Of a stretch of 59,856 bases of DNA, positions 1,000 through 31,918 are shown in pieces (the stretch's first letter is position 1; every line of letters begins with the position of its first letter). The position numbers were made by a program, and so were the translations under genes. Under the pieces are notes generated by a model that was not told where the DNA came from, did no database searches, and was given only the letters and a program-made list of their open reading frames with translations. Source of the DNA: Desulfotomaculaceae bacterium. GTDB lineage: Bacteria; Bacillota; Desulfotomaculia; Desulfotomaculales; Pelotomaculaceae. The stretch spans positions 1 to 59,856 of the forward strand of contig JAQVOX010000001.1 in NCBI GenBank assembly GCA_028702435.1, given 5' to 3'.

Positions 1000-1065
1000 T
1001 AAAGCGAAAATATGGGTTTTTTTAGATCGATATTGATAGTGATAAATGGGAGGCTATTTAATTTG

Positions 1066-5167: not shown

Positions 5168-5431
5168 GTGGCTGAACAGGAAGAGGTAATAACCTTAATT
5201 GACGAAGAGGGAGCGGAACTTGACTTTACAGTCATTGATATTATAGAAGTGTCTGGTTCCGAATACGCAATCCTATTGCCTGTGGAAGAAGAAAACGATG
5301 AAGCTATTATATTAAAAATTGCCAGCGATGATCAGGGAAATGAATTACTAGTTGACATTGAAGAGGACGATGAATGGGAAAAAGTGGCGGACGCCTGGGA
5401 AGAAAGGATGGCTGAGGAGGAAAAAAATTAA
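5168..5431 (+). CDS. DUF1292 domain protein (UPF0473, YrzB-like)
   Basis: Acidic small protein with ITLIDEEGAELDFTVIDIIEVSGSEYAILLP. GTG 5168 has better RBS spacing (GAGAGGTG) than GTG 5159. Confidence 0.8.
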   Translation: MAEQEEVITLIDEEGAELDFTVIDIIEVSGSEYAILLPVEEENDEAIILKIASDDQGNELLVDIEEDDEWEKVADAWEERMAEEEKN

Positions 5432-5610: not shown

Positions 5611-7110
5611 TTGTCTTTGAAAAACAACCGTAACAAAATAATTTATTGTTTTTTAATTGTAGTCCTGATCATTACCCCGCTGGCTTTTTTAAGTTCGGGG
5701 TTTTTTAATTCCCCCTCGGAGAAAGTGTTGCCTGGTGTAAAAGTAATGGGGATTAGCCTCGCAGAGCTGACTCGGTCTGAGGGAATAAATAAACTGGCTG
5801 AATTGGAAAAGAACCTCCGTTCATCTAGAGTAATGCTCCATTATCAGAACGAGAATTGGCCGCTACTGCTAAGTGAAGTGGGACTGGATCTTGATGAGGA
5901 GTCAATCATGGATGCAGCCTTGAGCGCCGGGCGAAGTGGCTCATTGTTCCAACAGTGGCAGGATCGGAAACGCTTTAAACAAAGCGGTAGCTCTATTATA
6001 CCGGTTATAGGGTTCGATGAAGAAAAACTAGAACAACGGGTTAAAGAGCTAACCAAGGGGGTTACAGTTGAGCCCATAAATGCTAATTTTAGTATTAGCG
6101 GTAACGATAACGTCACTGTAGTGCCCGCTAAGGACGGTACCGGTGTAGATCAGGAAAAACTAAAGAACGACATTGCTACAGTACTAATTGAAAATAAGAA
6201 ATTAGAAGTGGAGCTTGCTTTGGTGGCCATATCACCGGCCCGCTCAACCAGTATGGTTGAATCGATGGGGGTAAATGGGCTGTTGGCCGCATATTCGACT
6301 AGATTCGATCCTAATAAAGTAAGCCGCACCTACAATATCCGTGTGGCGGCAAAGGCTTTTGATGAACAGATCATCCTTCCCGGACACGAGGTTGCCTTTA
6401 ATACAGTAGTTGGGCCGCGCAGCTCGGAAGCAGGCTATAAAAATGCTCCGGTAATTGTCAATAACGAGATTGTTGATGGTCTGGGAGGCGGTGTTTGCCA
6501 GGTATCGACTACACTTTATAACTGTGTCTTATTGGCCGGCCTAGAGATTGTAGAACGTTATAACCACTCCCTGCCGGTCGGCTATATCCCCATTGGCCGT
6601 GATGCTACCGTGGTATACGATAATCTGGACTTCAAGTTTCGCAATAGCACTGATAACTGTATTTTTATCAAGTCTTTTGTTACCGGTGGAACTATTGGTT
6701 TTAAGTTTTACGGTAATACTGCCCATAAGCGGGATGTTAAGGTAAACACCTGGGTTACCCAGGAAATTGAGCCTGAAGTAGTTTACGAAAATGATCCCAA
6801 CCTGCCAATGGATGAGCAGGTGGTGAAGCAAGGGGGCGCCAAAGGGTTTAGAGTATCAGCAGAGCGCATTATCAGTCGGAACGGGGTAGAAGAAAAAAGG
6901 GAGCGACTGCCTTCCAGTGAATATAGACCGGTGACAAAGGTAATTGCAGTAGGAACATTGGAGCAGGACTTACCGCAAATTTCTCCTTCTACGCTTCCAC
7001 CGCCGGAAGACTGGTCTAACGTTTCTACTACGGGTAACAAACTGCCTATTGGTGAACAGGAAAGCGGGAATATTGGCAGCCAACCAGCTGGTGACAACAA
7101 CGGCAGGTAG
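5611..7110 (+). CDS. VanW family protein with C-terminal G5-like domain
   Basis: N-terminal TM segment, VanW core GGGVCQVSTTLYN, G5-like segment VVKQGGAKGFRVSAERII...VTKVIAVGT. Confidence 0.85.
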   Translation: MSLKNNRNKIIYCFLIVVLIITPLAFLSSGFFNSPSEKVLPGVKVMGISLAELTRSEGINKLAELEKNLRSSRVMLHYQNENWPLLLSEVGLDLDEESIMDAALSAGRSGSLFQQWQDRKRFKQSGSSIIPVIGFDEEKLEQRVKELTKGVTVEPINANFSISGNDNVTVVPAKDGTGVDQEKLKNDIATVLIENKKLEVELALVAISPARSTSMVESMGVNGLLAAYSTRFDPNKVSRTYNIRVAAKAFDEQIILPGHEVAFNTVVGPRSSEAGYKNAPVIVNNEIVDGLGGGVCQVSTTLYNCVLLAGLEIVERYNHSLPVGYIPIGRDATVVYDNLDFKFRNSTDNCIFIKSFVTGGTIGFKFYGNTAHKRDVKVNTWVTQEIEPEVVYENDPNLPMDEQVVKQGGAKGFRVSAERIISRNGVEEKRERLPSSEYRPVTKVIAVGTLEQDLPQISPSTLPPPEDWSNVSTTGNKLPIGEQESGNIGSQPAGDNNGR

Positions 7111-8320: not shown

Positions 8321-9534
8321 AACGACCGGAATTGCTTGCCCCTGCCGGGGACTTAGAGAAATTAAAGATTGCCGTGCTTTACGGCGCGGATGCAGTATAT
8401 ATCGGCGGCCGGCATTTTAGCCTGCGGGCCGGGGCAGGTAACTTCAGTGAGGCAGAAATAGCCGAAGGGTTAAGGTTTGCCCACACAAAAGGCGTTCGGG
8501 TGTACGTTGCGGTAAACATTTTTGCCCATAATCAAGACCTGGGTTTGTTGCCGGATTATCTTGATTTAATGCAAAGATTAGGGGTAGACGGGGTAATCGT
8601 ATCCGATCCGGGGGTAATTAGCTTGCTCAGAAAGCGTCACCCGGACCTACCTGTACACCTGAGCACACAAGCGAATACAACCAACTGGGCGGCAGCGCGC
8701 TTCTGGGAAGAACAGGGGATATCCAGGATTATTCTGTCCCGCGAGCTTTCTTTAGCTGAAATAAAAGAGATCCGCCCGCGGGTAGGAGTTGAGTTGGAAA
8801 TGTTTGTACATGGCGCCATGTGTATAGCTTATTCCGGCCGCTGTCTTTTAAGCAGCTACTTGACCGGAAGAGGCGCAAATAAGGGCGACTGCGCCCAGTC
8901 CTGCCGCTGGAAATACGCTCTCGTTGAGGAGAATAGGCCGGGAGAGTATCTTCCTTTTGCAGAAGATGAAAGAGGATCTTATATCTTGAGCTCACGGGAT
9001 CTTTGTCTGATTGAGCAACTTCCGGAACTTATTGGGGCAGGGGTCAATAGTTTTAAAATTGAAGGCAGGATGAAGAGCATTCATTACGTGGCCGGGGTGG
9101 TAAAAGCTTACCGGGAGGCGCTAGACGCTTATTGGGCCGGCGGAGCACTAAGCTTTGACCCGGTATGGCTGGAGGAGATTGGTAAAGTAAGCCACCGGGA
9201 ATATACTACCGGTTTTCTTTTCGGCAGACCTGGTGCAGCGGGCCAGCACTGCCATAGCAAAATATACCGGCGCCGCTACTCTTTTATCGGGTTGGTCCGG
9301 GGCTACGATGCGCAGACCGGTTTGGCCACCATTGAACAACGCAACCGCTTTGCCGTTGGCGACGAGGTAGAGATACTTATGCCAACGGGCCGGCCGGTAC
9401 AGCACCGGATCAAGGCTATTTATGATGAAGAAGGCAATGTTCTGGAAATTGCTCCACACCCGCAGCAAATCGTAAAAATACCTGTTGATCGTGAGTTAGC
9501 GGTTTATTCAATGCTGAGAAAGCCGCTAGAGTAA
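8317..9534 (+). CDS. peptidase U32 family protein (YrrN/YrrO-like)
   Basis: MKRPELLAPAG start, U32 signature E..VHGAMCIAYSGRCLLS, 4-nt GTGA overlap with the mltG stop. Confidence 0.9.
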   Translation: MKRPELLAPAGDLEKLKIAVLYGADAVYIGGRHFSLRAGAGNFSEAEIAEGLRFAHTKGVRVYVAVNIFAHNQDLGLLPDYLDLMQRLGVDGVIVSDPGVISLLRKRHPDLPVHLSTQANTTNWAAARFWEEQGISRIILSRELSLAEIKEIRPRVGVELEMFVHGAMCIAYSGRCLLSSYLTGRGANKGDCAQSCRWKYALVEENRPGEYLPFAEDERGSYILSSRDLCLIEQLPELIGAGVNSFKIEGRMKSIHYVAGVVKAYREALDAYWAGGALSFDPVWLEEIGKVSHREYTTGFLFGRPGAAGQHCHSKIYRRRYSFIGLVRGYDAQTGLATIEQRNRFAVGDEVEILMPTGRPVQHRIKAIYDEEGNVLEIAPHPQQIVKIPVDRELAVYSMLRKPLE

Positions 9535-9555
9535 CCCCTGTGCAAAAACCGATGA

Positions 9556-9969
9556 TTAATCAGTGGTTCCAGAATTACTCTGATAATATTTGCAATTGTT
9601 GCAAAGGTCTGCCTGATCTTGAATCACGATGCAATATGATTCATCTTCCTTCCAGCAAGGTTTGGACTTGTTTACTGCCTCACCTTTATTTCTAATTTTG
9701 CTATCCTGGCAACTTATGGTTTTCCAGCAAGAGTACATAGCAATAACTTGTTGCACCCCCGCAATATTTAATCCTTTTATATTAATTAGGTTGTGAATAA
9801 ATTTTAAGCGTTTCAGGTCATTGTTAGAATATAACCTCTGCTTATTTTTTCTGGCCGGATGGATCAGGTTGTTTTTTTCCCATATGCGAAGTGTTTCAGG
9901 GTGAACTTCAAGAAATTGTGCAACTATGCCAATGTTTAACATCGGTTTATCGTCATCCCAGGCGGGCAT
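9556..9969 (-). CDS. MerR family transcriptional regulator with Cys-rich C-terminal domain
   Basis: HTH IGIVAQFLEVHPETLRIWEKNNLIHPARKNKQRLYSNNDLKRLKFI, then six Cys in the last ~60 aa (CWKTISC, PCW, YC, CNNC). RBS AAGGGAG. Confidence 0.75.
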   Translation of the reverse strand: MPAWDDDKPMLNIGIVAQFLEVHPETLRIWEKNNLIHPARKNKQRLYSNNDLKRLKFIHNLINIKGLNIAGVQQVIAMYSCWKTISCQDSKIRNKGEAVNKSKPCWKEDESYCIVIQDQADLCNNCKYYQSNSGTTD

Positions 9970-10004
9970 TTAATCGCTCCCTTAGAAATAAAATTTATAA
10001 GTTT

Positions 10005-10033
10005 ATTATATACTTACTAATATTATTTGTAAA
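10005..10033 (-). promoter_or_regulatory. sigma-A type promoter for the MerR-like gene
   Basis: On the minus strand: TTTACA (10033-10028), 17-nt spacer, TATAAT (10010-10005). Confidence 0.5.
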
Positions 10034-10318
10034 TAACCCGAATAACTATTGAAACCGTTTGTAAGGTTTTTAATAGTAAAAGACTAGGGTAATGTTTCAA
10101 TATACCATTACAACAATATTGGTTCTCCTTTTTATAAATAATTTATAAAATTAAGCTATGTTTATTGAAAATTATTAATGAATAAAGATAATATAAAATT
10201 TAGATAATAATTATAGACACTATTTTAGTTGGATTGCCGGTAGCAAGTGGAATTAGTGGTTTATTACTAACCGGGAAATCCCGGCTTGTTTATTTTTAGC
10301 TTTAGGAGAGGATAAAAG

Positions 10319-11551
10319 TTGAAAAAAGATTCAGGAGTAATGGTAATAACACTGACAATAATATTCTTTCTTTCTGCTTTCTGTTATGTGCCTGTATTAA
10401 AGGAGAATTCAATTTCTGCCCTGTCAACCGCCGGGTTTTTTCAGAAACAACCAAAGGAAGCACCTGAATACCTGCCGGGTAGTTTTGCCACAATTATTGA
10501 CGAACAGGAAAATGTACTGTCAATGATGTCTAGAGCTGTGTATATAGGTGATGAAATTTACACTTCTGAAGGGGAGATTTACCGGTTGGACAAGGTGCAG
10601 GGCGACCGGGCTGTAGCAAAATTTTTAGGTATCGATGCGCAAATAGTAGCCTATAATGAGTTTTACGCCGCTCAGGAAATACCGGTAATTAGCAATAAAA
10701 CCGAAAAAAACCCGGCGCCACCGGCCAACTTTGCTATTTACCATACTCACAGCGCCGAGTCATACATACCTTCCGACGGCACCGCGTCCATCAACTTCAA
10801 AGGTGGTATCTACAAGGTAGGAATGGTCATGGCCGAAAGTTTAAGAAAAGCTGGGATGGAGGTAAATTACGACCAGGCCCCGCACGACCCGCACGATAAT
10901 AACGCTTATGTTCGTTCGCGGCGGACGGCCGCAAAACTGTTGAGTACCAACCCGGTGGCGATGTTTGACGTACATCGTGACGGCGTACCCGATCCAAATT
11001 TTTATAGAGATAAAGTCAGCGGTAACGTTGTAGCCAGGATCCGCCTGGTAGTGGGCCGGGAAAACCCGCGCATGTCGGCTAACCTGGATTTTGCCAAACA
11101 GATGCTGACTGCTGTAAATGATGTCCATCCTAAAGTGGTCAAAGAAATTTTTGTGGGAAAAGGTGACTATAACCAGGACCTATTGCCCACCGCCCTGCTC
11201 ATCGAAGCAGGCACTTATACCAATACCAGGGAGGAAGCTGAGCGGGGTGTTAACCTGTTTGCCGGGGCGCTACCCACAGCTCTGGGAATAAGTTCTGCTT
11301 CTCCGGCTCCGAAAGGACCGGAAGCTCCAGGTAAATCTACGGAGGCAGTAAGAGGATCGTGGAAGGCGCTGGGATGGCTTCTGGGACTGACTATTTTTGT
11401 CGGCCTAGCCTTTCTTTTTGTTAATGACGGAAAACTAACCACTGCCGGAACAAGGTTTCTAGATTTGATTAAAGAGGTTATGCCCTTTTTGCCGCGCCGG
11501 GCGGCACGTAAGCCGGGGATTAATAACGGAGATAAAAAGAATAACGAGTAA
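10319..11551 (+). CDS. spoIIP: stage II sporulation protein P
   Basis: N-terminal TM segment, IYHTHSAESYIPSDG and FDVHRDG motifs typical of SpoIIP amidase, RBS GGAGAGG before TTG. Confidence 0.9.
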   Translation: MKKDSGVMVITLTIIFFLSAFCYVPVLKENSISALSTAGFFQKQPKEAPEYLPGSFATIIDEQENVLSMMSRAVYIGDEIYTSEGEIYRLDKVQGDRAVAKFLGIDAQIVAYNEFYAAQEIPVISNKTEKNPAPPANFAIYHTHSAESYIPSDGTASINFKGGIYKVGMVMAESLRKAGMEVNYDQAPHDPHDNNAYVRSRRTAAKLLSTNPVAMFDVHRDGVPDPNFYRDKVSGNVVARIRLVVGRENPRMSANLDFAKQMLTAVNDVHPKVVKEIFVGKGDYNQDLLPTALLIEAGTYTNTREEAERGVNLFAGALPTALGISSASPAPKGPEAPGKSTEAVRGSWKALGWLLGLTIFVGLAFLFVNDGKLTTAGTRFLDLIKEVMPFLPRRAARKPGINNGDKKNNE

Positions 11552-11602
11552 CGATAAATGAGGGTAAATAAGGTAGTTACTGGTGAATTGTCTGAAAAGG
11601 TA

Positions 11603-11630
11603 AAGGACAGGCTGTGCCTGCCCTTTTTTT
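11603..11630 (+). terminator. intrinsic terminator after spoIIP
   Basis: AAGGACAGGC-TGT-GCCTGCCCTT hairpin with one mismatch, followed by a T7 run. Confidence 0.7.
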
Positions 11631-11787
11631 ATGTTAAAAAATACTAATGATCAATTAGTATTCCAGTAATTAATAAATATATATTTGATGTATTTGAAGT
11701 GTTACTTAATATAATAGTTATAAATATTCTTTGAGATTATTTAGGTTTAAGTGGTTAAAATTTATTAAATTAGTTACTATAATATTA

Positions 11788-11817
11788 TTGACATTTAGAA
11801 TTTATATTGTATATAAT
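11788..11817 (+). promoter_or_regulatory. sigma-A type promoter of the NifX-like/DUF5320/MinD-Fd operon
   Basis: TTGACA (11788-11793), 18-nt spacer, TATAAT (11812-11817), in an AT-rich intergenic region. Confidence 0.55.
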
Positions 11818-11932
11818 GTTTATGAAACATAGACCATAACTATTTTGGTATTCACTAAAAGGTAAAAACTGTTTGGTGATTTTACAGACCAGTGATTAAA
11901 AAGACAAGTTTGAATGAAAGAGGTGTATATAA

Positions 11933-12295
11933 TTGAAAATAGCAATTTCTGCCCAGGGACAAAACCTTGAAAGTCGTGTAGATCAACGGTTTGGCCGGTG
12001 CAGCTGGTTTATCGTTGCTGACCCGGAAACGGGTGATTACCAGGCAGTGAGTAATGATCAAAACCTTAACGCTGCTCAGGGCGCCGGCATTCAATCCGCA
12101 GAAATAGTTAGCCGTCAGGGAGTAGAGGCTGTGATTACCGGGCACTGTGGACCAAAAGCTTTTCGGACCCTAAATGTTGCCGGCATTAAGATATTCACAG
12201 GTGCAGAGGGCACGGTAGCAGAGTCCCTGGAGAAATACAAAAGCGGTTTGCTCACAGAAGCGAAGGAAGCAGATGTAGAAGGTCACTGGAGTTAA
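11933..12295 (+). CDS. NifB/NifX family molybdenum-iron cluster-binding domain protein (COG1433-type)
   Basis: MKIAISAQG...RFGRCSWFIV...AAQGAGIQSAEIV...GVEAVITGHCGPKAF. RBS AGAGGTG before TTG. Confidence 0.85.
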   Translation: MKIAISAQGQNLESRVDQRFGRCSWFIVADPETGDYQAVSNDQNLNAAQGAGIQSAEIVSRQGVEAVITGHCGPKAFRTLNVAGIKIFTGAEGTVAESLEKYKSGLLTEAKEADVEGHWS

Positions 12296-12330
12296 GCTTG
12301 AGTAAATTAATTGAGAAAGAGGTGTGCGAG

Positions 12331-12534
12331 ATGCCGAGGGGAGATGGAACAGGACCGCAGGGCCAGGGTACGGGAACAGGCAGGCGTTTGGGTCCGTGCG
12401 GGACCGGTAGCGGGCAAGGTCGTGGTGGAAGAGGTCTCGGCCGGGGGCGTTGTGGCTGGAGTGGTGGCCCGGGAGCCGGACAGGGTCAGGGCCAAGGTCG
12501 CGGCGGTCAGGGCCAAGGCCGCGGCAGGCGTTAA
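12331..12534 (+). CDS. DUF5320-like small protein, extremely Gly/Arg/Gln-rich
   Basis: Starts with MPRGDGTGPQGQGTGTGRRLGPC, the DUF5320 N-terminal signature as I recall it. The rest is an RGG/GQG repeat. I moved the start to the ATG at 12331 with RBS AGAGG. Confidence 0.65.
   Translation: MPRGDGTGPQGQGTGTGRRLGPCGTGSGQGRGGRGLGRGRCGWSGGPGAGQGQGQGRGGQGQGRGRR
12484..12525 (+). repeat. 2 x 21-nt tandem repeat inside the Gly/Arg-rich ORF
   Basis: GGTCAGGGCCAAGGTCGCGGC / GGTCAGGGCCAAGGCCGCGGC, one mismatch, in frame (GQGQGRG x2). Confidence 0.9.
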
Positions 12535-12569
12535 TTTTTAAGAAACTTTGTAGAGGGAGGTAGTGGAGC

Positions 12570-12917
12570 ATGCCAGGCTTTAACGGAACCGGACCGGCAG
12601 GTATGGGAACAATGACCGGACGCGGAAGAGGATATTGTATCAGCAATATTATCCCTGGTACCAGGTTTGCAACTGAAACTTGGAGCGGCCGTGGCGCCCG
12701 GCGCGGCTGGGGTTGGCAGCAATCCGACTTTACCACTGGAATGTTAGCTGGACTGGGCTTATACTTGGGCCATTCTTTGTTGAAAAGGCATTTTGCACCT
12801 GCGATAAGCGGGGAAGATGAGCTAAACCTGCTTAAAGAAGAAGTCGGCTATCTGGAAAATGCCCTTGCACAGGCTAAAAACCGCATTGAAGAACTGGAAA
12901 GCGAAGAAAAGAAATAG
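12570..12917 (+). CDS. DUF5320 family protein with C-terminal coiled coil
   Basis: MPGFNGTGPAGMGTMTGRGRGYC N-terminus, a hydrophobic patch, then the heptad-like LNLLKEEVGYLENALAQAKNRIEELESEEKK. Confidence 0.7.
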   Translation: MPGFNGTGPAGMGTMTGRGRGYCISNIIPGTRFATETWSGRGARRGWGWQQSDFTTGMLAGLGLYLGHSLLKRHFAPAISGEDELNLLKEEVGYLENALAQAKNRIEELESEEKK

Positions 12918-12939
12918 CATACCCGGTAGGGAGAATAAA

Positions 12940-13800
12940 ATGACTACAAGATTGACTATTGCCTTGGCGAGCGGCAAGGGAGGAACCGGTAAGACTACTG
13001 TTGCTGTGAATCTAGCTAGCGCTGCCGCCGCCGCAGGATATGAAGTTTGTTATGTGGATTGTGATGTGGAAGAGCCGAATGGGCATCTCTTCTTGAACCC
13101 CCGCATCAGGCGCCGTTACCCGGCCAATGTGCCGGTTCCAGTAGTTGATTCGGAGCGGTGTACCGCCTGCGGCGCCTGCGGGGAAATTTGTCAATACAGT
13201 GCGATCGTATGTATTAATAAAAATGTCCTCACTTTTGAAAAAATGTGTCATGGCTGTGGTGGTTGCCAACTGGTTTGCCCGGTGGCTGCCATTACCGAAA
13301 AGGACCGAGAAACCGGTGTCGTAGAAGAAGGCGAAGCCGGGCAGATAGCTTTTGTTCATGGCAGGCTCAATGTAGGCGAGGCTATGAGCCCGCCGTTAAT
13401 CAGGGCCGTGCGTGCGGCAGGGCAAAATAAGGCCTTAAATATTATTGATGTGCCCCCGGGGACCTCCTGCCCGGTAATTGCAGCCATTAGAGGAGTAGAC
13501 TTAGTTATTTTAGTAACCGAACCGACCCCCTTTGGGCTGAATGACCTGGACCTGGCCTTAGATATGGTTAAAGAGCTAGGGATCCCCCACGCCGTAGTGG
13601 TGAACAGGTCCGAACCGAGTAACAATCTAGCCCGTAATTTCTGCAAGGAAAGGGAAGTCAAATTACTGGCGGAGATTGCGGATGACCGCAGGGTAGCTGA
13701 AGCTTACTCCAGGGGCGAGTTGGCATTTTGGTCTGCCCCGGGTTATCAGGCAGTTTTTGATGACCTCCTGAGCTCTATTGTGAAAGAGGCGAGAAAGTGA
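12940..13800 (+). CDS. MinD/ParA-type P-loop ATPase with inserted 2x[4Fe-4S] ferredoxin domain (COG1149-type)
   Basis: Deviant Walker A ASGKGGTGKTT; CTACGACGEIC and CHGCGGCQLVCP motifs. I moved the start to the ATG at 12940 (RBS GGTAGGGAG). Confidence 0.88.
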   Translation: MTTRLTIALASGKGGTGKTTVAVNLASAAAAAGYEVCYVDCDVEEPNGHLFLNPRIRRRYPANVPVPVVDSERCTACGACGEICQYSAIVCINKNVLTFEKMCHGCGGCQLVCPVAAITEKDRETGVVEEGEAGQIAFVHGRLNVGEAMSPPLIRAVRAAGQNKALNIIDVPPGTSCPVIAAIRGVDLVILVTEPTPFGLNDLDLALDMVKELGIPHAVVVNRSEPSNNLARNFCKEREVKLLAEIADDRRVAEAYSRGELAFWSAPGYQAVFDDLLSSIVKEARK

Positions 13801-14675
13801 AAGAGATAATTGTAATCAGCGGTAAAGGGGGTACCGGTAAGACAAGCGTGGCCGCTTCTTTAGTTGCCCTGGCTAAAAGGTCGGTGGTGGCGGACTGCGA
13901 TGTGGATGCAGCCGACCTGCACTTGGTGCTTGATCCTCAGATTGAAAAAGTTGAGGATTTTTCCGGTGGCAAGGGCGCCACAATTATACCCGACAAGTGC
14001 AGCGATTGTGGAAAGTGTTATGAACTCTGCCGTTTTGAGGCCATAATCAAAGATGATGGTAAGAAGCCGGCTTATGCCATCGACCCTATAGCCTGTGAAG
14101 GGTGTGGAGTCTGCAGCTACTTTTGCCCGGAGAAAGCAATTGCATTCGAGCCTGTTGTTAACGGCCGGTGGTTTATTTCCGCTACCCGCTACGGCCCGAT
14201 GGTCCATGCCAGGCTTGGCATTGCGGCAGAAAATTCCGGCAAGCTGGTTTCCCTGGTACGCAGCCAGGCAAAAGCGCTTGCTGAAAAAGACGATTTGCCT
14301 TTTATTATTGTTGATGGTCCGCCGGGTATTGGTTGTCCGGTTATTGCGTCGATCACCGGCGCCGATGCGGTACTGATTATTACTGAACCCACTGTTTCTG
14401 GTGAACACGACCTGGAGCGGGTGGCTGAGCTGGCCGGACACTTTAAAATACCGACTTTTGTCTGTATCAATAAGTTTGATCTTAACCTGGAAAAAAGTAA
14501 AAATATCGAAGAAAAATCCATGGCCAGCGGTATCACCGTTATTGGTAGGATCCATTATGACCGGGCCGTAACCCAAGCCCAGGTAAAAAAGCTTCCGGTA
14601 GTAGAGTTTACCGGTTCTACTGTGGCAAAAGATATCATAGCTATTTGGGACAACCTCATAAAAGAACTAAACTAA
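13797..14675 (+). CDS. MinD/ParA-type P-loop ATPase with inserted 2x[4Fe-4S] ferredoxin domain (paralog)
   Basis: ISGKGGTGKTS Walker A; CSDCGKCYELC and CEGCGVCSYFCP. 4-nt overlap with the previous gene. Confidence 0.88.
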   Translation: MKEIIVISGKGGTGKTSVAASLVALAKRSVVADCDVDAADLHLVLDPQIEKVEDFSGGKGATIIPDKCSDCGKCYELCRFEAIIKDDGKKPAYAIDPIACEGCGVCSYFCPEKAIAFEPVVNGRWFISATRYGPMVHARLGIAAENSGKLVSLVRSQAKALAEKDDLPFIIVDGPPGIGCPVIASITGADAVLIITEPTVSGEHDLERVAELAGHFKIPTFVCINKFDLNLEKSKNIEEKSMASGITVIGRIHYDRAVTQAQVKKLPVVEFTGSTVAKDIIAIWDNLIKELN

Positions 14676-14693
14676 ATTAAAAAGGAGATTACT

Positions 14694-15038
14694 ATGAAAA
14701 TCGTTTTACCTATAGCAGGGAACCAATTATGTATGCATTTTGGCCATTGTGAAATGTTTCAAATTTTTAATGTCGATCCGGTAACTAAAGAAATTACTAG
14801 CACGGAAACATTTACTCCCCCGCCGCATGAGCCTGGCCTGTATCCCAGACTGCTGGGCGAAAAGGGGGCAAACATCATCATCGCCGGTGGTATGGGCCCG
14901 CGGGCGCAGGAATTGTTCAACCGTAATAATATAGAAGTCGTAGTTGGCGCTAGTTCTGCTACCGGTAGCCCTGAAGATGTAGTCAGGGAGTATTTAGAAG
15001 GCTCTTTGCAAACCGGCGACAATGCCTGCAGCCACTAA
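14694..15038 (+). CDS. NifB/NifX family cluster-binding domain protein (second copy)
   Basis: MKIVLPIAG...HFGHCEMFQIF...GANIIIAGGMGPRA. RBS AAGGAG. Confidence 0.85.
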   Translation: MKIVLPIAGNQLCMHFGHCEMFQIFNVDPVTKEITSTETFTPPPHEPGLYPRLLGEKGANIIIAGGMGPRAQELFNRNNIEVVVGASSATGSPEDVVREYLEGSLQTGDNACSH

Positions 15039-15577
15039 TGATCTAGGTTGAAGTTAAGGAGCATGACAGTACTTTTTTATTAAATTCCATACCGGAAAGG
15101 TCGGTTCAATAAAATATTGTTTTAATATGTGTATTGGCTAAAGTAAGGGCTAGGTTGGCATAGTTATAAGTAATCGCCGGCAAACATCCTGGCAAAATAT
15201 TTTAGCCAAATTTTTTTGAGGGGCGCCGGTTGGGTGTCGGGTGCATTTAGGGAGGTATTTTTAGAATGAGAAAGGTTTGTTTTGATCATAGTGCTATGCT
15301 ACTATACCTGTACCCCCCTGTGGCCATTTCTGTATAAGTAACTTATAAATAAATATTTAAGATGTTTAGATATTATTGTTGATTATTTATGCAGATGGGA
15401 ATTATAATATTTATGAGCAATGACCGCAATCTAGTGGTGTTTAAGCTATATTCTACCCGAATGCGTGCTTTAGGAGTAAATGAAAAGTATGTACTGAAAG
15501 ATTTATTGTTGTTAGTATACGACCAGATAGGTGATATTTATGGTTTTCATAATAATAGCTAACAGGAGATAAATTTA

Positions 15578-16006
15578 ATGCAAATCTACGATAATGAAAA
15601 ACTTATAGAGCATTTTATGAATCCATGTAATGTGGGGAGAATTGACAATGCTGATGGAATTGGAATGGCAGGCGATCCTTCCTGCAGCGACTACGTAAAG
15701 ATATACATAAAAGTCGGTGATGGTCAATTAATGGATATAAAATATGAAGTACATGGTTGCCCGGCAGCTATTGCTACTTCCAGCGTTTTTAGCGAACTGG
15801 TTAAAGGAAAGGCAATATACGATGCCCTGGAAATAAATGACCAGGATGTTGTTGAAGCTTTGAACGGTTTACCGGAGCAAAAATTACATTGTTCTTGTAT
15901 GGCCGTGGAAGCTTTCGATAAAGCTATTATCGACTGGGTCATACGGACCCTGCCGGAATATAAGGAAGAGATCGAGTCTATGATGGAGCATCTATCCCAA
16001 AAATAG
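15578..16006 (+). CDS. NifU N-terminal/IscU-like Fe-S cluster scaffold protein
   Basis: NPCNVGRI, DPSCSD, HGCPAAIATSS and LHCSCMAVEA give the three scaffold Cys. Confidence 0.85.
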   Translation: MQIYDNEKLIEHFMNPCNVGRIDNADGIGMAGDPSCSDYVKIYIKVGDGQLMDIKYEVHGCPAAIATSSVFSELVKGKAIYDALEINDQDVVEALNGLPEQKLHCSCMAVEAFDKAIIDWVIRTLPEYKEEIESMMEHLSQK

Positions 16007-16087
16007 ATTGGGTTTTTAAAATCATATATTTTTCTAATGAAAGCATGACAGATTTTAAATAATAACATACAGGAGGATATCTAATTT

Positions 16088-16909
16088 ATGTCAGATTGTG
16101 CTTATGAAAACGAAAGTAATAATGGACAAGCTAATGAAACGAAAACGGGCATTGAAAAATTAGCCCAAAATAATTTTAGCAGTATTAAAAATGTAATAGC
16201 TGTAGCTAGTGGTAAAGGTGGTGTAGGGAAATCTTCAGTGACATCACTTCTTGCCTGTGAATTTAAGAGGAAAGGCCAAATTGTCGGCGTGCTGGACGCA
16301 GACATTACCGGTCCCAGCCTGCCCAAAATGTTTGGCCTTAAGAGTGGGGTAAGAAGCAATGGCTCTGCGTTATTCCCTTCAATCAGCGATAATGGGATCA
16401 GAGTTATGTCACTAAACTTATTGACAGGCAAAGAAGATGACCCGGTTATCTGGCGTGGGCCGATAATCGCCGGTACCGTTAAACAGTTTTGGACTGATGT
16501 CGCCTGGGGGGACCTTGATTACCTTTTTGTAGATTTACCCCCAGGAACTGGTGACGTGCCTTTAACTGTAATGCAGTCCCTGCCTCTTAACGGGCTGGTA
16601 GTTGTATCATCACCGCAAGATCTGGCCGTGATGATTGTAAGTAAGGCCATCAAAATGGCCCAAATGATGAATATTCCTATACTTGGACTGGTTGAAAATA
16701 TGAGTAGTTTTATTTGCCCCCATTGCGGAGAAGAATTTTCGTTGTTTGGCCATGCCCAGGGCAAAGAAATAGCTGAGAAATTCCAAATTCCGTTTATCGG
16801 TAGTTTACCAATTGACCCTCACCTTTCAGAACTCTGTGACCAGGGTAAGATTGAGGAGTATCAAAGTAATCTTTTCCATGATTTTATACCTGAAAAGTCA
16901 ATTCAATAG
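16088..16909 (+). CDS. Mrp/NBP35 (ApbC) family Fe-S cluster carrier ATPase
   Basis: VASGKGGVGKSS Walker A, DLPPGTGD, CPHCGEEF (CxxC) motif. Confidence 0.92.
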   Translation: MSDCAYENESNNGQANETKTGIEKLAQNNFSSIKNVIAVASGKGGVGKSSVTSLLACEFKRKGQIVGVLDADITGPSLPKMFGLKSGVRSNGSALFPSISDNGIRVMSLNLLTGKEDDPVIWRGPIIAGTVKQFWTDVAWGDLDYLFVDLPPGTGDVPLTVMQSLPLNGLVVVSSPQDLAVMIVSKAIKMAQMMNIPILGLVENMSSFICPHCGEEFSLFGHAQGKEIAEKFQIPFIGSLPIDPHLSELCDQGKIEEYQSNLFHDFIPEKSIQ

Positions 16910-16958
16910 AAAAGATTACTGAAAATTTGTTGCTAAATTTTCAAAAAAAGGAGGTAAT

Positions 16959-17486
16959 ATGTCATTATATCGATTCTCCGGTAGAACACCGGTAATAGGC
17001 GCCGGAAGTTATGTGAGTGAGCTGGCCATGGTCATTGGAGATGTTAAGATTGGTGAAAACTGCTATGTAGGCCACGGCACTATTCTCAGAGGAGATTACG
17101 GAACGATCGAAATTGGTCCGGGCACTGCTGTAGAGGAGGGTACAGTTATTCATGCCCCCCCTGGCGGTACCTGCCGGATTGGGAAAAGTGTCACCTTGGG
17201 GCACGGCTGTATAGTTCATGGGGATGATATTGGAGACTATGCATTAATTGGATTAGGTTCTGTTGTAAGTCTCAATGCCATAGTCGGTTCTTGGGCTATT
17301 GTGGCCGAAGGCTGTGTGGTAAAGAATAAACAGGTTATTCCCGAAAAAGTTGTTGTAGCAGGTAGCCCGGCCCGTATTGTTAGAAATACTGAACCTAGAG
17401 ACGTAGAATTTTGGACATGGGTTAAGCAGCTTTATGTTAATTTAGCCCATCAATATTTACGGGAGGGTATGGAAAAAATAGGTTAG
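16959..17486 (+). CDS. gamma carbonic anhydrase family / hexapeptide-repeat protein
   Basis: Left-handed beta-helix hexapeptide repeats, with His residues in the GHGTILRGD...IHAPPG context. 175 aa. Confidence 0.88.
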   Translation: MSLYRFSGRTPVIGAGSYVSELAMVIGDVKIGENCYVGHGTILRGDYGTIEIGPGTAVEEGTVIHAPPGGTCRIGKSVTLGHGCIVHGDDIGDYALIGLGSVVSLNAIVGSWAIVAEGCVVKNKQVIPEKVVVAGSPARIVRNTEPRDVEFWTWVKQLYVNLAHQYLREGMEKIG

Positions 17487-17556
17487 TTTTCAATCATGGT
17501 TACGGTGAACATGAGCACTTGGTCATGAGTTTTTGCATTGCGGGTAGTAAGTTGAC

Positions 17557-17590
17557 AGCCGGGCTTCATTAATGAAGCCCGGCTATTTTT
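17557..17590 (+). terminator. intrinsic terminator
   Basis: Perfect hairpin AGCCGGGCTTCATT/AATGAAGCCCGGCT followed by ATTTTT. Confidence 0.85.
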
Positions 17591-17684
17591 AGTTAAATAG
17601 ACCAGGGTTTTTTATGTACGTATAGATGAAAACATTTCAGGCTATGCTTATATATATAGCTTTTTTTAGAAAGGCTGGAAGACG

Positions 17685-19379
17685 GTGGATATAAAGAGGC
17701 AAAAAAGGCTGATTACAGCTTTTTATTTTTTTGTGTTAGTGCTGGGACTTCTTGCTGTTAGACTCTGGGTAATTCAGGTTAGGGACGGGGACAATTACGC
17801 TATTATGGCTCTGGAACAGGGAAGTAGCTCGGTGGTTTTAGAAGATGTATGCAGGGGGAGAATCCTGGACAGAAACCTGATGCCTTTAACTGGTGCAAGA
17901 GTTGGTGATCGGGTAGTTTTCTTTCCTGCATTAATAGAAGATAAGGACTTAGTACTGCAGGTCCTCTCAGAAACACTTAATACTCCACAACAGGAGTTAG
18001 CTGGTTTTCTGTACGATCCCAGCTATTTGCCGTTAACGCTGTTGCCGGAGCAATCCAAGGCTGTTAAAGAATATGACTGGAAAGGAGTGACAGTATTACC
18101 TGTAAGCTTTAGGTATGGGGACCGGCCGCTGGCAGCGCAAGTAGTGGGACACCTGGGTCGAATTTCCTCGAAAGAGGAATTATCTTTATTAAGCGAGAGG
18201 AGTAACAAGCTCTACCGGTTTAGCGATTTAGTCGGCAAATCAGGTCTTGAATTTTTTTATGAGACGGAACTCAAAGGGGGAAGACCGGAACGAGCAGTGA
18301 GGATTTTTTACGACGCGGAGGGAAATCTTTTAAAGGGTTCCGTCTTTCAAGTAGAGGATGATGTCAGGGACAAAACCAGAAGGGATTTGGTGCTCACTAT
18401 TGACGCCCGGATTCAGAGTATTGTTGAAGAGGTGATGGACCAAAGAGTAGCAAAGGGCGCGGTAGTAGTGATGGAGGCCGGTACGGGAGACCTTCTCGCT
18501 ATGGCTGGACGTCCATCCTATCATCCCGCACAGGTGGAAGTATATTTGCAAAATGGCGGGGAGGAACGTTTTTTTGACCATTGTACCGCACTATACCCGC
18601 CTGGCTCTATTTTTAAAATAGTAGTGGCTGCGGCCGCTCTTGAGGAAGGTATAGCTAGGCTAAATAGCCGGTTCACCTGTCATGGGGAAAATGAGCAATT
18701 AATCCATTGCTGGAAGGACGCCGGGCACGGCAGTATTACTTTTGCACAAGCATTTGCCGCATCCTGCAACCCTGTTTTTGCGCGATTGGGCTTAAGCTTG
18801 GGAGACTCAAAAATAATAGAATATGCCCAAAGGTTAGGTCTTGACAACCAGGTTGTTACCGGTTACCCGGTACCGCCCGACCACCGCCAGGACCTGAATC
18901 TGATTAACGCTCCTAATAGTCTGGTAAACAGCAGCGTCGGCCAGGGACCTGTTCTAGCTACTCCGGTGCAGGTGACTGCTATGTTAAATGCGGTTGTTTC
19001 TGATGGTATCTACCGGTTACCACGCCTGGTCAAAGAGTTACGTGAAAGCAACGGGAAAGTAGCCCGGGAGTTTACTGCGGACCCCGGCCGAAAAGCAATC
19101 CAGCCTGATACCGCTAGTGAGCTGCGCCGGTTATTAGAACTGGTAATTGATGAGGGCGCCGGAAGTGAGGCCATGGCGCCACTTTTCGGTAGCGCCGGTA
19201 AAACCGGATCAGCCCAGGTGGGCGATAGTGGACAGGTAAACGCTTGGTTTACCGGCTACGCCCCCCGGGCAAATCCATGCTATATTGTGACGGTGCTGGT
19301 AGAAGGCGGGGCCAGCGGCGCCGAGTCGGCAGCCCCTGTTTTCCGAGAAATTATGGAGCAAATCTTGAGTTTAGACTAG
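17685..19379 (+). CDS. class B penicillin-binding protein (FtsI/SpoVD-type transpeptidase)
   Basis: N-terminal TM segment, PBP dimerisation domain, SIFK (SxxK), SCN (SxN) and KTGSA (KTG) motifs. Confidence 0.9.
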   Translation: MDIKRQKRLITAFYFFVLVLGLLAVRLWVIQVRDGDNYAIMALEQGSSSVVLEDVCRGRILDRNLMPLTGARVGDRVVFFPALIEDKDLVLQVLSETLNTPQQELAGFLYDPSYLPLTLLPEQSKAVKEYDWKGVTVLPVSFRYGDRPLAAQVVGHLGRISSKEELSLLSERSNKLYRFSDLVGKSGLEFFYETELKGGRPERAVRIFYDAEGNLLKGSVFQVEDDVRDKTRRDLVLTIDARIQSIVEEVMDQRVAKGAVVVMEAGTGDLLAMAGRPSYHPAQVEVYLQNGGEERFFDHCTALYPPGSIFKIVVAAAALEEGIARLNSRFTCHGENEQLIHCWKDAGHGSITFAQAFAASCNPVFARLGLSLGDSKIIEYAQRLGLDNQVVTGYPVPPDHRQDLNLINAPNSLVNSSVGQGPVLATPVQVTAMLNAVVSDGIYRLPRLVKELRESNGKVAREFTADPGRKAIQPDTASELRRLLELVIDEGAGSEAMAPLFGSAGKTGSAQVGDSGQVNAWFTGYAPRANPCYIVTVLVEGGASGAESAAPVFREIMEQILSLD

Positions 19380-30179: not shown

Positions 30180-31733
30180 TTAGCCGAGGATTGCCTGTAA
30201 GTCCGCTTCCGGGGTGCTAATGGGCTTGATATTGAATTTATCCACCAAAATGTTCAGCACATTTGGAGAAATAAACGCCGGTAGGGTGGGACCGAGATAG
30301 ATGTCCTTGATCTCTAACGACAACAGCGTCAGTAAGACGCAAACGGCTTTCTGTTCGAACCACGATAGAACAATCGACAGGGGGAGTTCGTTGACCCCGC
30401 AGTTAAACGCGCCGGCTAGCGCCACCGCTACTTGAATGGCGGAATAAGCGTCATTGCACTGGCCCATGTCCATTATCCGTGGCAAACCGCCAATTTCACC
30501 GATGTTGAGGTCATTAAAGCGGTATTTACCGCAGCCAAGGGTGAGCACGACCGTGTCCGGAGGCGTCTTTTTCACAAAATCAGTGTAGTAACTTCTGCTT
30601 GTCCTGGCGCCGTCGCAACCGCCCACCAGGAAGAAATGCTTGATCGCGCCGGCCTTGACGGCGTCAATCACCTTGTCGGCCACGCCCAGCACGGTGTTGT
30701 GGGCAAACCCGGTCATTAGCTCGGAGCCACCGTTGATCCCGGTTAGGTTTTGGTCTTCAGCCCACCCGCCCAGTTCCAGCGCCTTATTGATTACCGGGGT
30801 GAAATCCTTGACCCCGTTTTCCCCTTTAATGTGAGTGACACCCGGATAGCCGACCGCGTCGGTGGTAAAGATCCGGTCTGAGTAAGACGGCCGGGGCGGC
30901 ATCAGGCAGTTAGTGGTATAGAGCACCGCACCGGGTATATTGTCAAATTCTTGGCGCTGGTTCTGCCAGGCCGTACCGAAATTGCCTTTCAGGTGGGCAT
31001 ATTGCTTTAGCTCCGGGTAGCCGTGGGCCGGAAGCATTTCCCCGTGGGTGTAAATGTTAATGCCCTTACCCTCAGTCTGCGCCAGGAGCTGTTTTAAGTC
31101 ATGCAGGTCGTGGCCGGTGACTACAATGAACGGTCCCTTGTTAATCGTTGTCGGGACTTTAACCGGAACAGGATGCCCGTAAGTCGAGGTGTTGGCCTGG
31201 TCGAGCAGGGCCATGCATTTGAGGTTAACCTGTCCAAACTCCATGAGAAGGTCCAGCCACTCTGCGGGCGTATGCTCTTCACCGATGGCGCGCATGCCTT
31301 GGTAAAACCAGGCGGTCACCTCGTCATCTGTAAAGCCCAGGACGTGGGCGTGCCAGGCGTAAGCAGCCATGCCGCGGAGCCCGAAAAGAAGGGTGGAGCG
31401 AAGCGATACCACGTCAGGGTCACCCTGCCAAAGGTCATTGACGTCTGGGTCCGCTGCACCACCTAATGCTTCTTTTTTAGTCTGAGCAAGGTCCTTGAGC
31501 TCGTCAATACGGCTTCCATCGAAGTTGACGTTAGTGATTGCAGCAAAAAGACCCTGCATCATCAGTTTGTCTGTGTCCTGATCCGGGTTTTGGCCCAGTG
31601 CGGCACGGGCCAGACCGACCAGCGCGCAGGTCAACTCGTCTAACTTTGCGGCGATATCCGGCTGTTTGCCGCATACGCCTACTTTGGTGCATCCTTTGCC
31701 CCCGACGGTTTGCTCACATTGAAAACAAAACAT
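30180..31733 (-). CDS. hcp: hybrid cluster protein (hydroxylamine reductase)
   Basis: MFCFQCEQTVGGKGCTKVGVCGK N-terminal cluster motif; the rest is Hcp-like throughout (GHDL, GGCDG, MGQCNDA). Confidence 0.95.
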   Translation of the reverse strand: MFCFQCEQTVGGKGCTKVGVCGKQPDIAAKLDELTCALVGLARAALGQNPDQDTDKLMMQGLFAAITNVNFDGSRIDELKDLAQTKKEALGGAADPDVNDLWQGDPDVVSLRSTLLFGLRGMAAYAWHAHVLGFTDDEVTAWFYQGMRAIGEEHTPAEWLDLLMEFGQVNLKCMALLDQANTSTYGHPVPVKVPTTINKGPFIVVTGHDLHDLKQLLAQTEGKGINIYTHGEMLPAHGYPELKQYAHLKGNFGTAWQNQRQEFDNIPGAVLYTTNCLMPPRPSYSDRIFTTDAVGYPGVTHIKGENGVKDFTPVINKALELGGWAEDQNLTGINGGSELMTGFAHNTVLGVADKVIDAVKAGAIKHFFLVGGCDGARTSRSYYTDFVKKTPPDTVVLTLGCGKYRFNDLNIGEIGGLPRIMDMGQCNDAYSAIQVAVALAGAFNCGVNELPLSIVLSWFEQKAVCVLLTLLSLEIKDIYLGPTLPAFISPNVLNILVDKFNIKPISTPEADLQAILG

Positions 31734-31896: not shown

Positions 31897-31918
31897 TAAA
31901 AAGCAAAGGTGGGTGAAA

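Follow-up and report, generated by a model that had tools for sequence, protein, structure and literature searches.

The question raised by this locus is what a compact block of genes for NifX-like proteins, DUF5320 proteins, ferredoxin-bearing ATPases, a NifU-type scaffold and an Mrp-type carrier does in a Gram-positive spore-former. The block lies at positions 11,788 to 17,486 of a 59,856-nucleotide stretch of contig JAQVOX010000001.1 (assembly GCA_028702435.1) from a Desulfotomaculaceae bacterium, the whole of which is referred to here as the window. An earlier note on this DNA held that the NifX-like genes do not serve nitrogenase, which stands, and that the combination of COG1149, COG1433 and DUF5320 is without experimental function, which does not, COG1149 and COG1433 with Mrp being the combination of the studied ORP complex of Desulfovibrio vulgaris. 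The block is very probably a Gram-positive (Desulfotomaculaceae/Pelotomaculum-like) version of this anaerobe-specific ORP gene cluster. Its features are listed below, with families assigned by Pfam and NCBIfam profile searches of the window proteins.

11788..11817, + strand: promoter P1, TTGACA-N18-TATAAT, score 12/12, sigma-70-type, predicted to drive the six-gene block
11820..11839, + strand: operator-like imperfect palindrome TTATGAAACATAGACCATAA, directly 3' of the P1 -10 box
11933..12295, + strand: NifX1, single PF02579 domain (90 bits), orange-protein (Orp8)-type carrier
12331..12534, + strand: DUFa, 67 residues, Gly/Arg/Gln-rich, DUF5320 at 26.4 bits against a cut-off of 27
12570..12917, + strand: DUFb, full-length DUF5320 (PF17253), 71.3 bits against a cut-off of 27
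12940..13800, + strand: ATPa, CbiA/MinD-type P-loop with two Fer4 motifs (Pfam CbiA, ParA, Fer4)
13797..14675, + strand: ATPb, CbiA/MinD-type P-loop with two Fer4 motifs, its start overlapping the ATPa stop by 4 nt
14694..15038, + strand: NifX2, PF02579 (66.6 bits), stand-alone homologue of the MrpORP C-terminal 'Di-Nase' domain
15039..15577: non-coding gap of 539 bp, holding promoter P2 and the second operator-like motif
15379..15408: promoter P2, score 10/12, putative NifU promoter
15411..15430: second copy of the operator-like motif, directly 3' of the P2 -10 box
15578..16006, + strand: NifU/IscU-type Fe-S scaffold, PF01592 NifU_N (117 bits)
16088..16909, + strand: Mrp/NBP35-type Fe-S carrier ATPase, PF10609 (NUBPL/Mrp ParA-type, 311.9 bits)
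16959..17486, + strand: hexapeptide protein resembling gamma carbonic anhydrase (gamma-CA) and PaaY, Hexapep, NF050158 at 114 bits against a cut-off of 250
17557..17584, + strand: intrinsic terminator, 12-bp stem with 8 G-C pairs, 4-nt loop and T-rich tail, predicted to end the NifU-Mrp-gamma-CA unit

The ORP complex of D. vulgaris contains Orp3, Orp4, Orp5, Orp8 and Orp9 (PMC6345978), and has been studied since 2011. Orp3 and Orp4 are MinD-like ATPases with two [4Fe-4S] ferredoxin motifs each, and Orp8 is a homologue of the Mo-Cu orange protein; these three co-purify, and the complex has been recovered by pull-down in Desulfovibrio (PMC6345978). The identification of the window block as a cluster of this type is based on the Di-Nase motifs of NifX2, the match of NifX1 to a solved orange protein, and the reciprocal matches and gene order found at a second ORP locus. 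NifX2, read from its sequence, has the motifs CMHFGHCE and TPPPHEPGLYP and a C-terminal CSH, where the published MrpORP Di-Nase motifs are CxHFGHCE, TPPPHxPGxxP and a C-terminal CDH (PMC6345978). The top solved-structure match of NifX1 is the D. gigas ORP (2WFB, E 4.4e-20), followed by MTH1175, with scores of 75 and 71 bits, respectively.

The second locus (L081) is that of the closest long-contig relative (P0140) in a search with the 2WFB sequence, and the P0140 protein and the D. gigas ORP share 75% identity. The genes of L081 run DUF134, a small G/Q/R-rich open reading frame (ORF), ORP, ATPase, ATPase, NifX and an FmdB zinc ribbon. Reciprocal matches to the window were found for NifX1 and ORP (46% identity), ATPa and the first ATPase (46%), ATPb and the second ATPase (49%), and NifX2 and the downstream NifX (37%). 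NifX1 and the L081 ORP also have equivalent positions, upstream of the ATPases. ATPa and ATPb would correspond to Orp3 and Orp4 and NifX1 to Orp8, while NifX2 and Mrp together would be a split MrpORP (Orp9).

The split is reflected in the NCBIfam model for MrpORP, NF041136. The Mrp gene covers model positions 2–232 with 333 bits and NifX2 covers positions 265–365 with 118 bits (E 5e-34), and the model cut-off of 450 bits is reached by neither on its own. Mrp is best seen as the predicted P-loop half of a split MrpORP. According to the published phylogeny, fusion of Mrp with NifX to give MrpORP has occurred several times (PMC6345978).

The block and the ORP system of D. vulgaris Hildenborough share a paralogous pair of MinD-type ATPases of approximately 31 kDa with two [4Fe-4S] ferredoxin motifs each, a single-domain PF02579 orange-protein homologue, an Mrp/NBP35 P-loop with CxxC, the Di-Nase domain's motifs, and an occurrence in anaerobes only. 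They differ in several respects. In the window MrpORP is present as two genes, with NifU and the 539-bp gap between them, and all of the genes are co-directional, whereas D. vulgaris has two divergent operons. The window has sigma-70-type promoters with an operator-like motif, in contrast to the sigma-54/OrpR control of D. vulgaris; OrpR is the characterised regulator of the Desulfovibrio orp operons (PMC6345978, PMC8359166). NifU and the two DUF5320 genes are additional, neither being present in the ORP literature searched, and the host is a Gram-positive spore-former.

Conservation of the block was assessed in a sample of one genome per GTDB species, consisting of 80 loci (L001–L080) anchored on ATPa. 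Six-frame ORFs of these loci were searched with the nine window proteins, the remainder of the same loci serving as an internal control. The loci span Bacillota, Planctomycetota, Desulfobacterota, Armatimonadota, Spirochaetota, Acidobacteriota, Ignavibacteria, Dehalococcoidia, Omnitrophota and other phyla, and there are at least 8,000 ATPa-like proteins in public data. The nearest relatives of ATPa are from Desulfotomaculaceae and Pelotomaculum metagenome-assembled genomes and are 80–91% identical; L001, from a Pelotomaculum sp., has an ATPa that is 80% identical. The families of the window were distributed around the ATPase pair as follows.

NifX-type: within 4 kb in 72 of 80 loci; 0.242 hits per kb within 4 kb and 0.020 further out
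Mrp: within 4 kb in 40 of 80 loci; 0.077 hits per kb within 4 kb and 0.004 further out
DUF5320 (phmmer): within 4 kb in 37 of 80 loci; 0.089 hits per kb within 4 kb and 0.004 further out
NifU: within 4 kb in 20 of 80 loci; 0.045 hits per kb within 4 kb and 0 further out
gamma-CA-like: within 4 kb in 1 of 80 loci; 0.002 hits per kb within 4 kb and 0 further out

The density of co-occurrence inside 4 kb of the ATPase pair is 10–20 times that found beyond it in the same loci. This supports the previous description of the block as a module related to metalloclusters, and shows it to be a conserved one. Of the 40 Mrp genes near the ATPase pair, 13 have a fused NifX domain, the MrpORP architecture, and 27 are unfused. 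Synteny with the four closest loci (L001–L004) covers the module genes alone and the flanks differ, which identifies the module as the unit. The genes for SpoIIP, a U32 peptidase, a MerR-like protein, the gamma-CA-like protein and a penicillin-binding protein (PBP) are not shared with these four loci. The gamma-CA-like gene had been counted as a member of the block. Its presence in one of the 80 loci and its absence from L001–L004 mark it instead as a local addition, and it is probably co-transcribed here while standing outside the conserved module. In L001 a small 2x[4Fe-4S] ferredoxin gene (9966–10145) is found after Mrp and before the terminator, where the window has the gamma-CA-like gene.

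Other families recur beside the ATPase pair in the 80 loci. Commonest, in 40 loci, is a third paralogue of NifX that has a Gly/Arg linker and a zinc ribbon; the others are FmdB Zn_ribbon_8 (27), a sigma-54 activator (24), metallo-beta-lactamase (MBL)-fold proteins (19), DUF89/ARMT1 (19), radical SAM proteins (18), DUF134 (17), TrmO_N with CGGC (17) and a methyltransferase (12). Examples of recurrent neighbour genes are at L059 6279–7022, L031 11947–12204, L024 6331–7719 and L069 6245–6649. The window is without the NifX-zinc ribbon paralogue, FmdB, the sigma-54 activator (enhancer-binding protein, EBP), MBL-fold, DUF89, radical SAM, DUF134, TrmO with CGGC and the methyltransferase.

The ATPase pair is the most ordered part of the module. 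Every one of the 75 loci with both genes has ATPb after ATPa on the same strand, with a gap of less than 400 nt in 63 of these, and in two more loci the two are fused in one ORF (L052, 9764–11818; L065, 9971–11824). Both proteins have a deviant Walker A motif, GKGGTGKT, with the signature lysine of nucleotide-sandwich dimers, and in both, switch I (DCDV...) is followed by an inserted 2x[4Fe-4S] ferredoxin domain. Conservation of the eight ferredoxin cysteines is 99–100% in 77 ATPa and 71 ATPb orthologues. A further cysteine in switch II (PPGxxCP), Cys177 in ATPa and Cys180 in ATPb, is 100% conserved in the same 77 and 71 orthologues. An obligate heterodimer of the two is suggested by their constant gene order, their translational coupling and the ATPa-ATPb fusions that occur naturally, and it fits the co-purification of Orp3, Orp4 and Orp8 in Desulfovibrio (PMC6345978).

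The block had also been described as a near-mirror duplication. The genes concerned are indeed paralogues, but the duplication is not a recent one, ATPa and ATPb being 32% identical and NifX1 and NifX2 22% identical. These low identities, and the order of ATPa then ATPb that is fixed across phyla, indicate ancient paralogy of both the ATPase and the NifX genes.

The AlphaFold2 model of ATPa has a predicted local distance difference test (pLDDT) score of 91.9, and points to a fold of the MinD/Mrp class. Its nearest solved folds by Foldseek are archaeal MinD (1HYQ, the best match), FleN, Cfd1, ApbC and ATPase-type HypB, with a TM-score of approximately 0.6, and the ferredoxin insert is in none of the solved structures compared. 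The NifH-type reading proposed for these proteins before is not upheld by these folds, nor by profile alignment. In the hhalign comparison with Azotobacter vinelandii NifH just 49 N-terminal columns align, from the P-loop to switch I, and together with the near folds this places the family in the MinD/Mrp class rather than the NifH class. A NifH-like architecture was rejected on this alignment and on the Foldseek ranking, in which MinD, FleN, Cfd1 and ApbC are well above NifH-like proteins. Within the aligned segment, Cys41 of ATPa aligns (in the 'CD' motif of switch I) with Cys38 of NifH, a residue that is not known to be a cluster ligand. Between the Walker B Asp and a Cys the two also have equal, ungapped spacing, read by eye as DVPPGTSC in ATPa and DVLGDVVC in NifH. 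The Pfam model Fer4_NifH scores 23.1 bits on the ATPase, below its cut-off of 25.

The ATPase pair is like NifH, BchL, ChlL and CfbC in being a dimeric deviant-Walker-A ATPase with Fe-S clusters, the dimer here being a predicted heterodimer. It differs from NifH in that the clusters would be held in a separate ferredoxin insert and not at the subunit-bridging Cys97/Cys132 site. ATPa and ATPb belong to a common P-loop class with the Mrp/NBP35/ApbC carriers (ApbC, Nbp35-Cfd1, Ind1), and Cfd1 and ApbC are among the near folds. In contrast to these carriers, ATPa and ATPb lack CxxC and have instead the 2x[4Fe-4S] insert and the invariant switch-II cysteine. An ATP-gated Fe-S function of the pair is plausible.

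The Mrp of the window has the usual features of the Mrp/NBP35/ApbC carriers, with a deviant Walker A motif GKGGVGKS, a CPHC (CxxC) motif and the PF10609 match of 311.9 bits. It is not ApbC proper, since its score against the ApbC equivalog model is 219.5 bits and the cut-off is 348. NifU scores 152.5 bits against TIGR03419 NifU_clost, below the cut-off of 187.9. It has five cysteines in total, including those in the stretches GDPSC, HGC and LHC, which are likely to be cluster ligands. NifU is 75% identical to the NifU encoded 5' of NifX1 in L001, and where it is found, in 20 of the 80 loci, it is within 4 kb of the ATPase pair and never further out. NifU would therefore appear to be a scaffold dedicated to the module.

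The nine ORFs were found on the + strand at the coordinates previously given, and their Pfam/NCBIfam families agree with those proposed. A Shine-Dalgarno sequence is present 6–10 nt 5' of every start, including those of DUFa at 12331 and ATPa at 12940. The intergenic distances, in gene order, are 35, 35, 22, -4, 18, 539, 81 and 49 nt; the 4-nt overlap of the ATPase genes and the gap of approximately 540 bp reported before are here -4 and 539 nt. The G+C content (GC) is locally up to 0.53 at 12001–14000, compared with approximately 0.40–0.42 in the flanks. The rise falls on the DUF5320 genes, which are Gly/Arg-rich (GGN/CGN), and on the gene of the first ATPase.

The promoter reported at 11788–11817 is a perfect TTGACA-N18-TATAAT, and the strong terminator reported at 17557 has the 12-bp stem with 8 G-C pairs and a T run. 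There are 2 such perfect promoter sites in the approximately 60-kb window, compared with 0.05 expected by chance; the other is at 970–999, just 5' of the alanyl-tRNA synthetase gene (1012–3705). The earlier note named one promoter, P1, ahead of the six genes. P1 itself is borne out, but the NifU-Mrp unit has its own predicted promoter, P2 (15379–15408). The block would thus be made up of two transcription units, with P1 serving the six genes from NifX1 to NifX2 and P2 serving NifU, Mrp and the gamma-CA-like gene up to the terminator. Between them, the 539-bp gap holds just a weak terminator-like site (15176–15193).

The -35 and -10 boxes of P1 are conserved 5' of the NifX1 orthologue in L001–L004. 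In an alignment of five NifX1 and two NifU promoters from five genomes, both boxes are conserved and the sequence TTATGA(A/G)-N6-7-(A/G)TGnCCATAA is found directly after the -10 box, at a constant offset in the NifX1 and NifU promoters alike. The L001 copies are at approximately 5859–5880 and 5235–5256. Across the whole window the number of motif sites is not above chance, with one additional site, 5' of the ORF at 27422. The arrangement is consistent with a candidate operator, probably that of a repressor, common to P1 and P2 that would co-regulate both units. A MerR/HspR-like regulator with a Cys-rich C-terminal extension is encoded 1.8 kb upstream, beyond SpoIIP (9556–9969, - strand), and none of the 80 loci gave a MerR/HspR-like gene beside the module.

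A sigma-54 consensus was not found upstream of the block, and there is no EBP or OrpR-type activator in the 60-kb window. EBP genes accompany the cluster in 24 of the 80 other loci. Rfam searches gave no match at the gathering threshold in the whole window, and a chance match only at E <= 1 over 11500–17750. A riboswitch or leader RNA was ruled out by this null result and by the fold z-score of the P1 leader, which is -0.6.

The gene order in L001 is NifU, NifX1, DUFa, DUFb, ATPa, ATPb, NifX2, Mrp, with NifU 5' of NifX1, whereas in the window NifX2 and Mrp are separated by NifU with its own promoter. Mrp is directly 3' of NifX2 in L001, L002 and L004. No coding remnant was found in the 539-bp gap, the homology of which is limited to the NifU promoter region of L001; positions 15343–15437 are 79% identical to the region upstream of NifU in L001 (5166–5261). 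NifU and its promoter appear to have moved as a cassette, splitting the NifX2-Mrp pair that is contiguous in L001, L002 and L004.

How the products of an ORP-type cluster with this composition might work can be proposed in outline. NifU would be the scaffold on which Fe-S clusters are assembled. An Mrp dimer would carry [4Fe-4S] on its CxxC motif and load the ferredoxin inserts of ATPa and ATPb. Such loading has been seen for the Desulfovibrio proteins, where MrpORP hands its [4Fe-4S] cluster to Orp3/Orp4 in vitro (PMC6345978), and it is on these data that loading by Mrp is proposed here. The Fe-S trafficking role suggested in the earlier note fits this transfer. ATPa and ATPb would form an ATP-dependent heterodimer, with two [4Fe-4S] clusters in the ferredoxin insert of each subunit, and would associate with the small PF02579 carriers NifX1 and NifX2. 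NifX1, of the Orp8 type, may bind anionic metal-sulfide species non-covalently, and NifX2, of the MrpORP C-domain type, would have a Cys/His cluster site. The Gly/Arg-rich DUFa and DUFb may also join the complex. The whole would act under strongly reducing conditions on inorganic Fe-S or metal-sulfide clusters, which it would bind, assemble, store or transfer. Of these steps, the ATPase heterodimer, the direction of cluster flow and the role of DUF5320 are inferred. In Desulfovibrio, expression of the orp genes is confined to low redox potential (PMC6345978, PMC8359166).

The mechanistic model, taken as a whole, has about an even chance of being right, and the ORP-type cluster together with this proposed working, considered as one explanation, is somewhat better than even. 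Several points weigh against it. The experimental data on ORP come from Desulfovibrio, and the host here is Gram-positive. MrpORP is split, and the 539-bp gap and separate promoter divide the module into two transcription units. The orthology of ATPa and ATPb to Orp3 and Orp4 is set by the published descriptions of the Orp proteins and by L081. The module does not encode a cysteine desulfurase, and among the 15 most frequent neighbour families in the 80 loci there is no recurrent client enzyme. In addition, the authors of the Desulfovibrio ORP work propose a role in cell division (PMC6345978, PMC8359166).

The DUF5320 genes bear on what the complex does with its clusters. In the literature searched DUF5320 has incidental mentions only. 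In DUFb the N-terminal motif is MPxxxGTGPxGxG...GRGxGxC; the middle is of Gly/Arg/aromatic composition, and the C-terminal helix, which is coiled-coil-like, is rich in Glu, Leu and Lys. DUFa matches the N-terminal half of the DUF5320 model only, with the N-terminal motif MPRGDGTGP, and its orthologues are in the equivalent position in L001, L002, L004 and L007. A word-indexed global search with DUF5320 returned only 18 close relatives and is uninformative on distribution. Within the sampled loci, a search for the N-terminal motif found 80 ORFs in 53 of the 80 loci; 78 of these ORFs are no more than 5 kb from the ATPase pair and 72 are upstream of it on the same strand. At L081, the ORF at 9414–9752, directly 5' of the ORP homologue, is G/Q/R-rich and 112 residues long; it contains (GQGR)n repeats, has a Cys in the middle, and is not recognised as DUF5320 by Pfam. 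Since orp7 occupies the place of this ORF, Orp7 of D. vulgaris may, going by gene position alone, be DUFa-like.

Natural fusions join the NifX and DUF5320 families. NifX with a Gly/Arg/Met-rich linker and the DUF5320 coiled coil was found in L005 (4649–5296, - strand), L010 (4607–5254) and L073 (3956–4516), and by Pfam the L005 protein contains PF02579 at 92.6 bits and PF17253 at 33.2 bits in one polypeptide. Other fusions are of NifX1, a tail and NifX2 (L019 1155–2159, L068 387–1232), of NifX, a tail and ferredoxin (L014 8383–9261), and of NifX, a tail and a zinc ribbon (L076 9407–9997). The DUF5320 N-terminal motif is also fused to a zinc ribbon among related loci. These NifX-DUF5320 fusions resemble the architecture of IssA (PF2025) from Pyrococcus furiosus, in which an IPR003731 domain precedes a cationic Gly/aromatic tail, the proposed wrapping of (FeS2-)n thioferrate (PMC5524996). 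The likeness is compositional and architectural.

This likeness gives rise to the best surviving alternative, that the module is an IssA-like store working in trans. NifX1 and the cationic DUF5320 proteins would nucleate and wrap an anionic iron-sulfide polymer (thioferrate) or thiometallate, and the ATPase pair would load it and mobilise it into NifU and Mrp. This reading is tentative and, on balance, unlikely. The same tentative standing is given to its two components, that the DUF5320 proteins may be detached IssA-type tails and that the Fe-S ATPase heterodimer may be an ATP-driven loader or reductive mobiliser of the store. The NifX1 domain is that of IssA, IPR003731/PF02579, and a cationic, Gly-rich, presumably disordered segment accompanies it, in adjacent DUF5320 genes here and in cis elsewhere, as in the single L005 polypeptide and the other fusions. 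DUFa is polycationic, with an isoelectric point (pI) of 12.0, and of its 67 residues 30 are Gly and 11 are Arg. By score, MTH1175, a member of the IssA clade (PMC5524996), is nearly as good a match to NifX1 as ORP is.

The published features of the IssA clade are a pI of at least 9, fewer than 5 Cys and at least 20% Gly in the last 40 residues (PMC5524996). NifX1 alone falls outside these limits, being acidic, with a pI of 5.1 and with Gly making up 12% of its last 40 residues, and in the window the tail is a separate polypeptide, which are both differences from IssA. A virtual NifX1+DUFa fusion falls within them (pI 9.5, 4 Cys, 50% Gly in the last 40), as do, in cis, four natural NifX1-type fusions (L006, L011, L023 and L043). 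Reduction of the IssA store yields fragments from which [4Fe-4S] clusters are built in acceptor proteins (PMC5524996). The ATPase pair would use ATP, and possibly low-potential electrons, for a comparable purpose. Sparging with N2, which brings the medium to a higher redox potential, turns the orp genes off, and the authors suggest loss of H2S as the cause (PMC6345978, PMC8359166); this too would suit a sulfide store. However, the similarity to IssA is at the level of composition only, Gly/Arg-rich tails are also found in RNA-binding and phase-separating proteins, and the authors of the MrpORP study report no IssA-type tail in Orp9 (PMC6345978).

Next is the hypothesis of the earlier note, that of an ATP-dependent machine for delivery and repair of Fe-S or complex clusters in anaerobic redox enzymes, for example Hcp. 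It is favoured by the presence of a scaffold (NifU) and carrier (Mrp) in the module, by the confinement of the module to anaerobic lineages, and by the in vitro transfer of the MrpORP cluster not to Orp3/Orp4 alone but also to apo-aconitase (PMC6345978). In those published assays, however, Orp3 and Orp4 receive clusters and do not donate them (PMC6345978), and the most frequent neighbour families provide no candidate client. No Hcp gene was found near the module in the 80 loci, other than one weak fragment match. The window Hcp is 12.7 kb away, on the opposite strand and beside its own Crp/Fnr-type regulator. The conserved Fe-S module of this hypothesis is retained, Hcp as its client is not, and as a full account it is distinctly unlikely. 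The window Hcp gene (Prismane family, 530 bits) is at 30180–31733 on the - strand, with the divergent regulator gene at 31913–32680 on the + strand. This looks like an HcpR-type arrangement and has no connection with the module.

A MinD-like spatial or cell-division system, in which the ATPase pair would position the septum or a polar structure and the metal clusters would be redox sensors, is very unlikely. In Desulfovibrio, inactivation of OrpR results in morphological defects and MrpORP is located at a cell pole (PMC6345978, PMC8359166). The ATPase fold is MinD-class, with archaeal MinD 1HYQ as its best match, both ATPases end in an amphipathic helix, and the window flanks contain sporulation and cell-wall genes (SpoIIP, SpoVD-like PBP). 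Yet these flanking genes are not kept even in the closest relatives, and division or partition genes are not among the 15 most frequent neighbour families of the 80 loci. The MinD NCBIfam models score far below their cut-offs (minD_arch 63 bits against 201.75; minD_bact 48.7 against 212.9). The C-terminal helix has a net charge of 0, where the membrane-targeting helix of MinD is cationic, but this does not discriminate between the readings. The constant partners of the pair are instead cluster carriers, NifX, Mrp and NifU.

The Mo-Cu cluster as the physiological ligand of ORP is debated. The handling of Mo, W or Cu thiometallates, with NifX1 binding a Mo-Cu (or W) sulfide cluster and the module detoxifying or delivering thiomolybdate or thiotungstate in sulfidic habitats, is highly improbable, for although the D. 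gigas ORP and its homologues hold a non-covalent [S2MoS2CuS2MoS2] cluster (PMC6345978) and NifX1 is 46% identical to a close ORP relative, genes for Mo/W transport or molybdopterin were seen neither in the 15 most frequent neighbour families nor among the annotated window genes.

The ORP complex is already known as a kind of system, and the solid conclusion is that the window block is an ordinary member of this widespread system, plus one useful new lead in DUF5320. New here are the split MrpORP, the inclusion of NifU and of two DUF5320 genes, the sigma-70-type and operator-like control, and the Gram-positive spore-forming host. As far as was found, the literature does not describe DUF5320 as a systematic associate and fusion partner in ORP-type clusters. 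The compact arrangement keeps a supply line together, with scaffold, carrier, Fe-S ATPase pair and NifX carriers, along with DUF5320. Clusters of the ORP type are conserved across anaerobic phyla, of which the Desulfovibrio cluster is one system, studied for approximately 15 years. The DUF5320 genes suggest a link to iron-sulfur storage, and if the storage reading is true, the long-unexplained ORP complex would be a widespread system for Fe-S storage and mobilisation in anaerobes.

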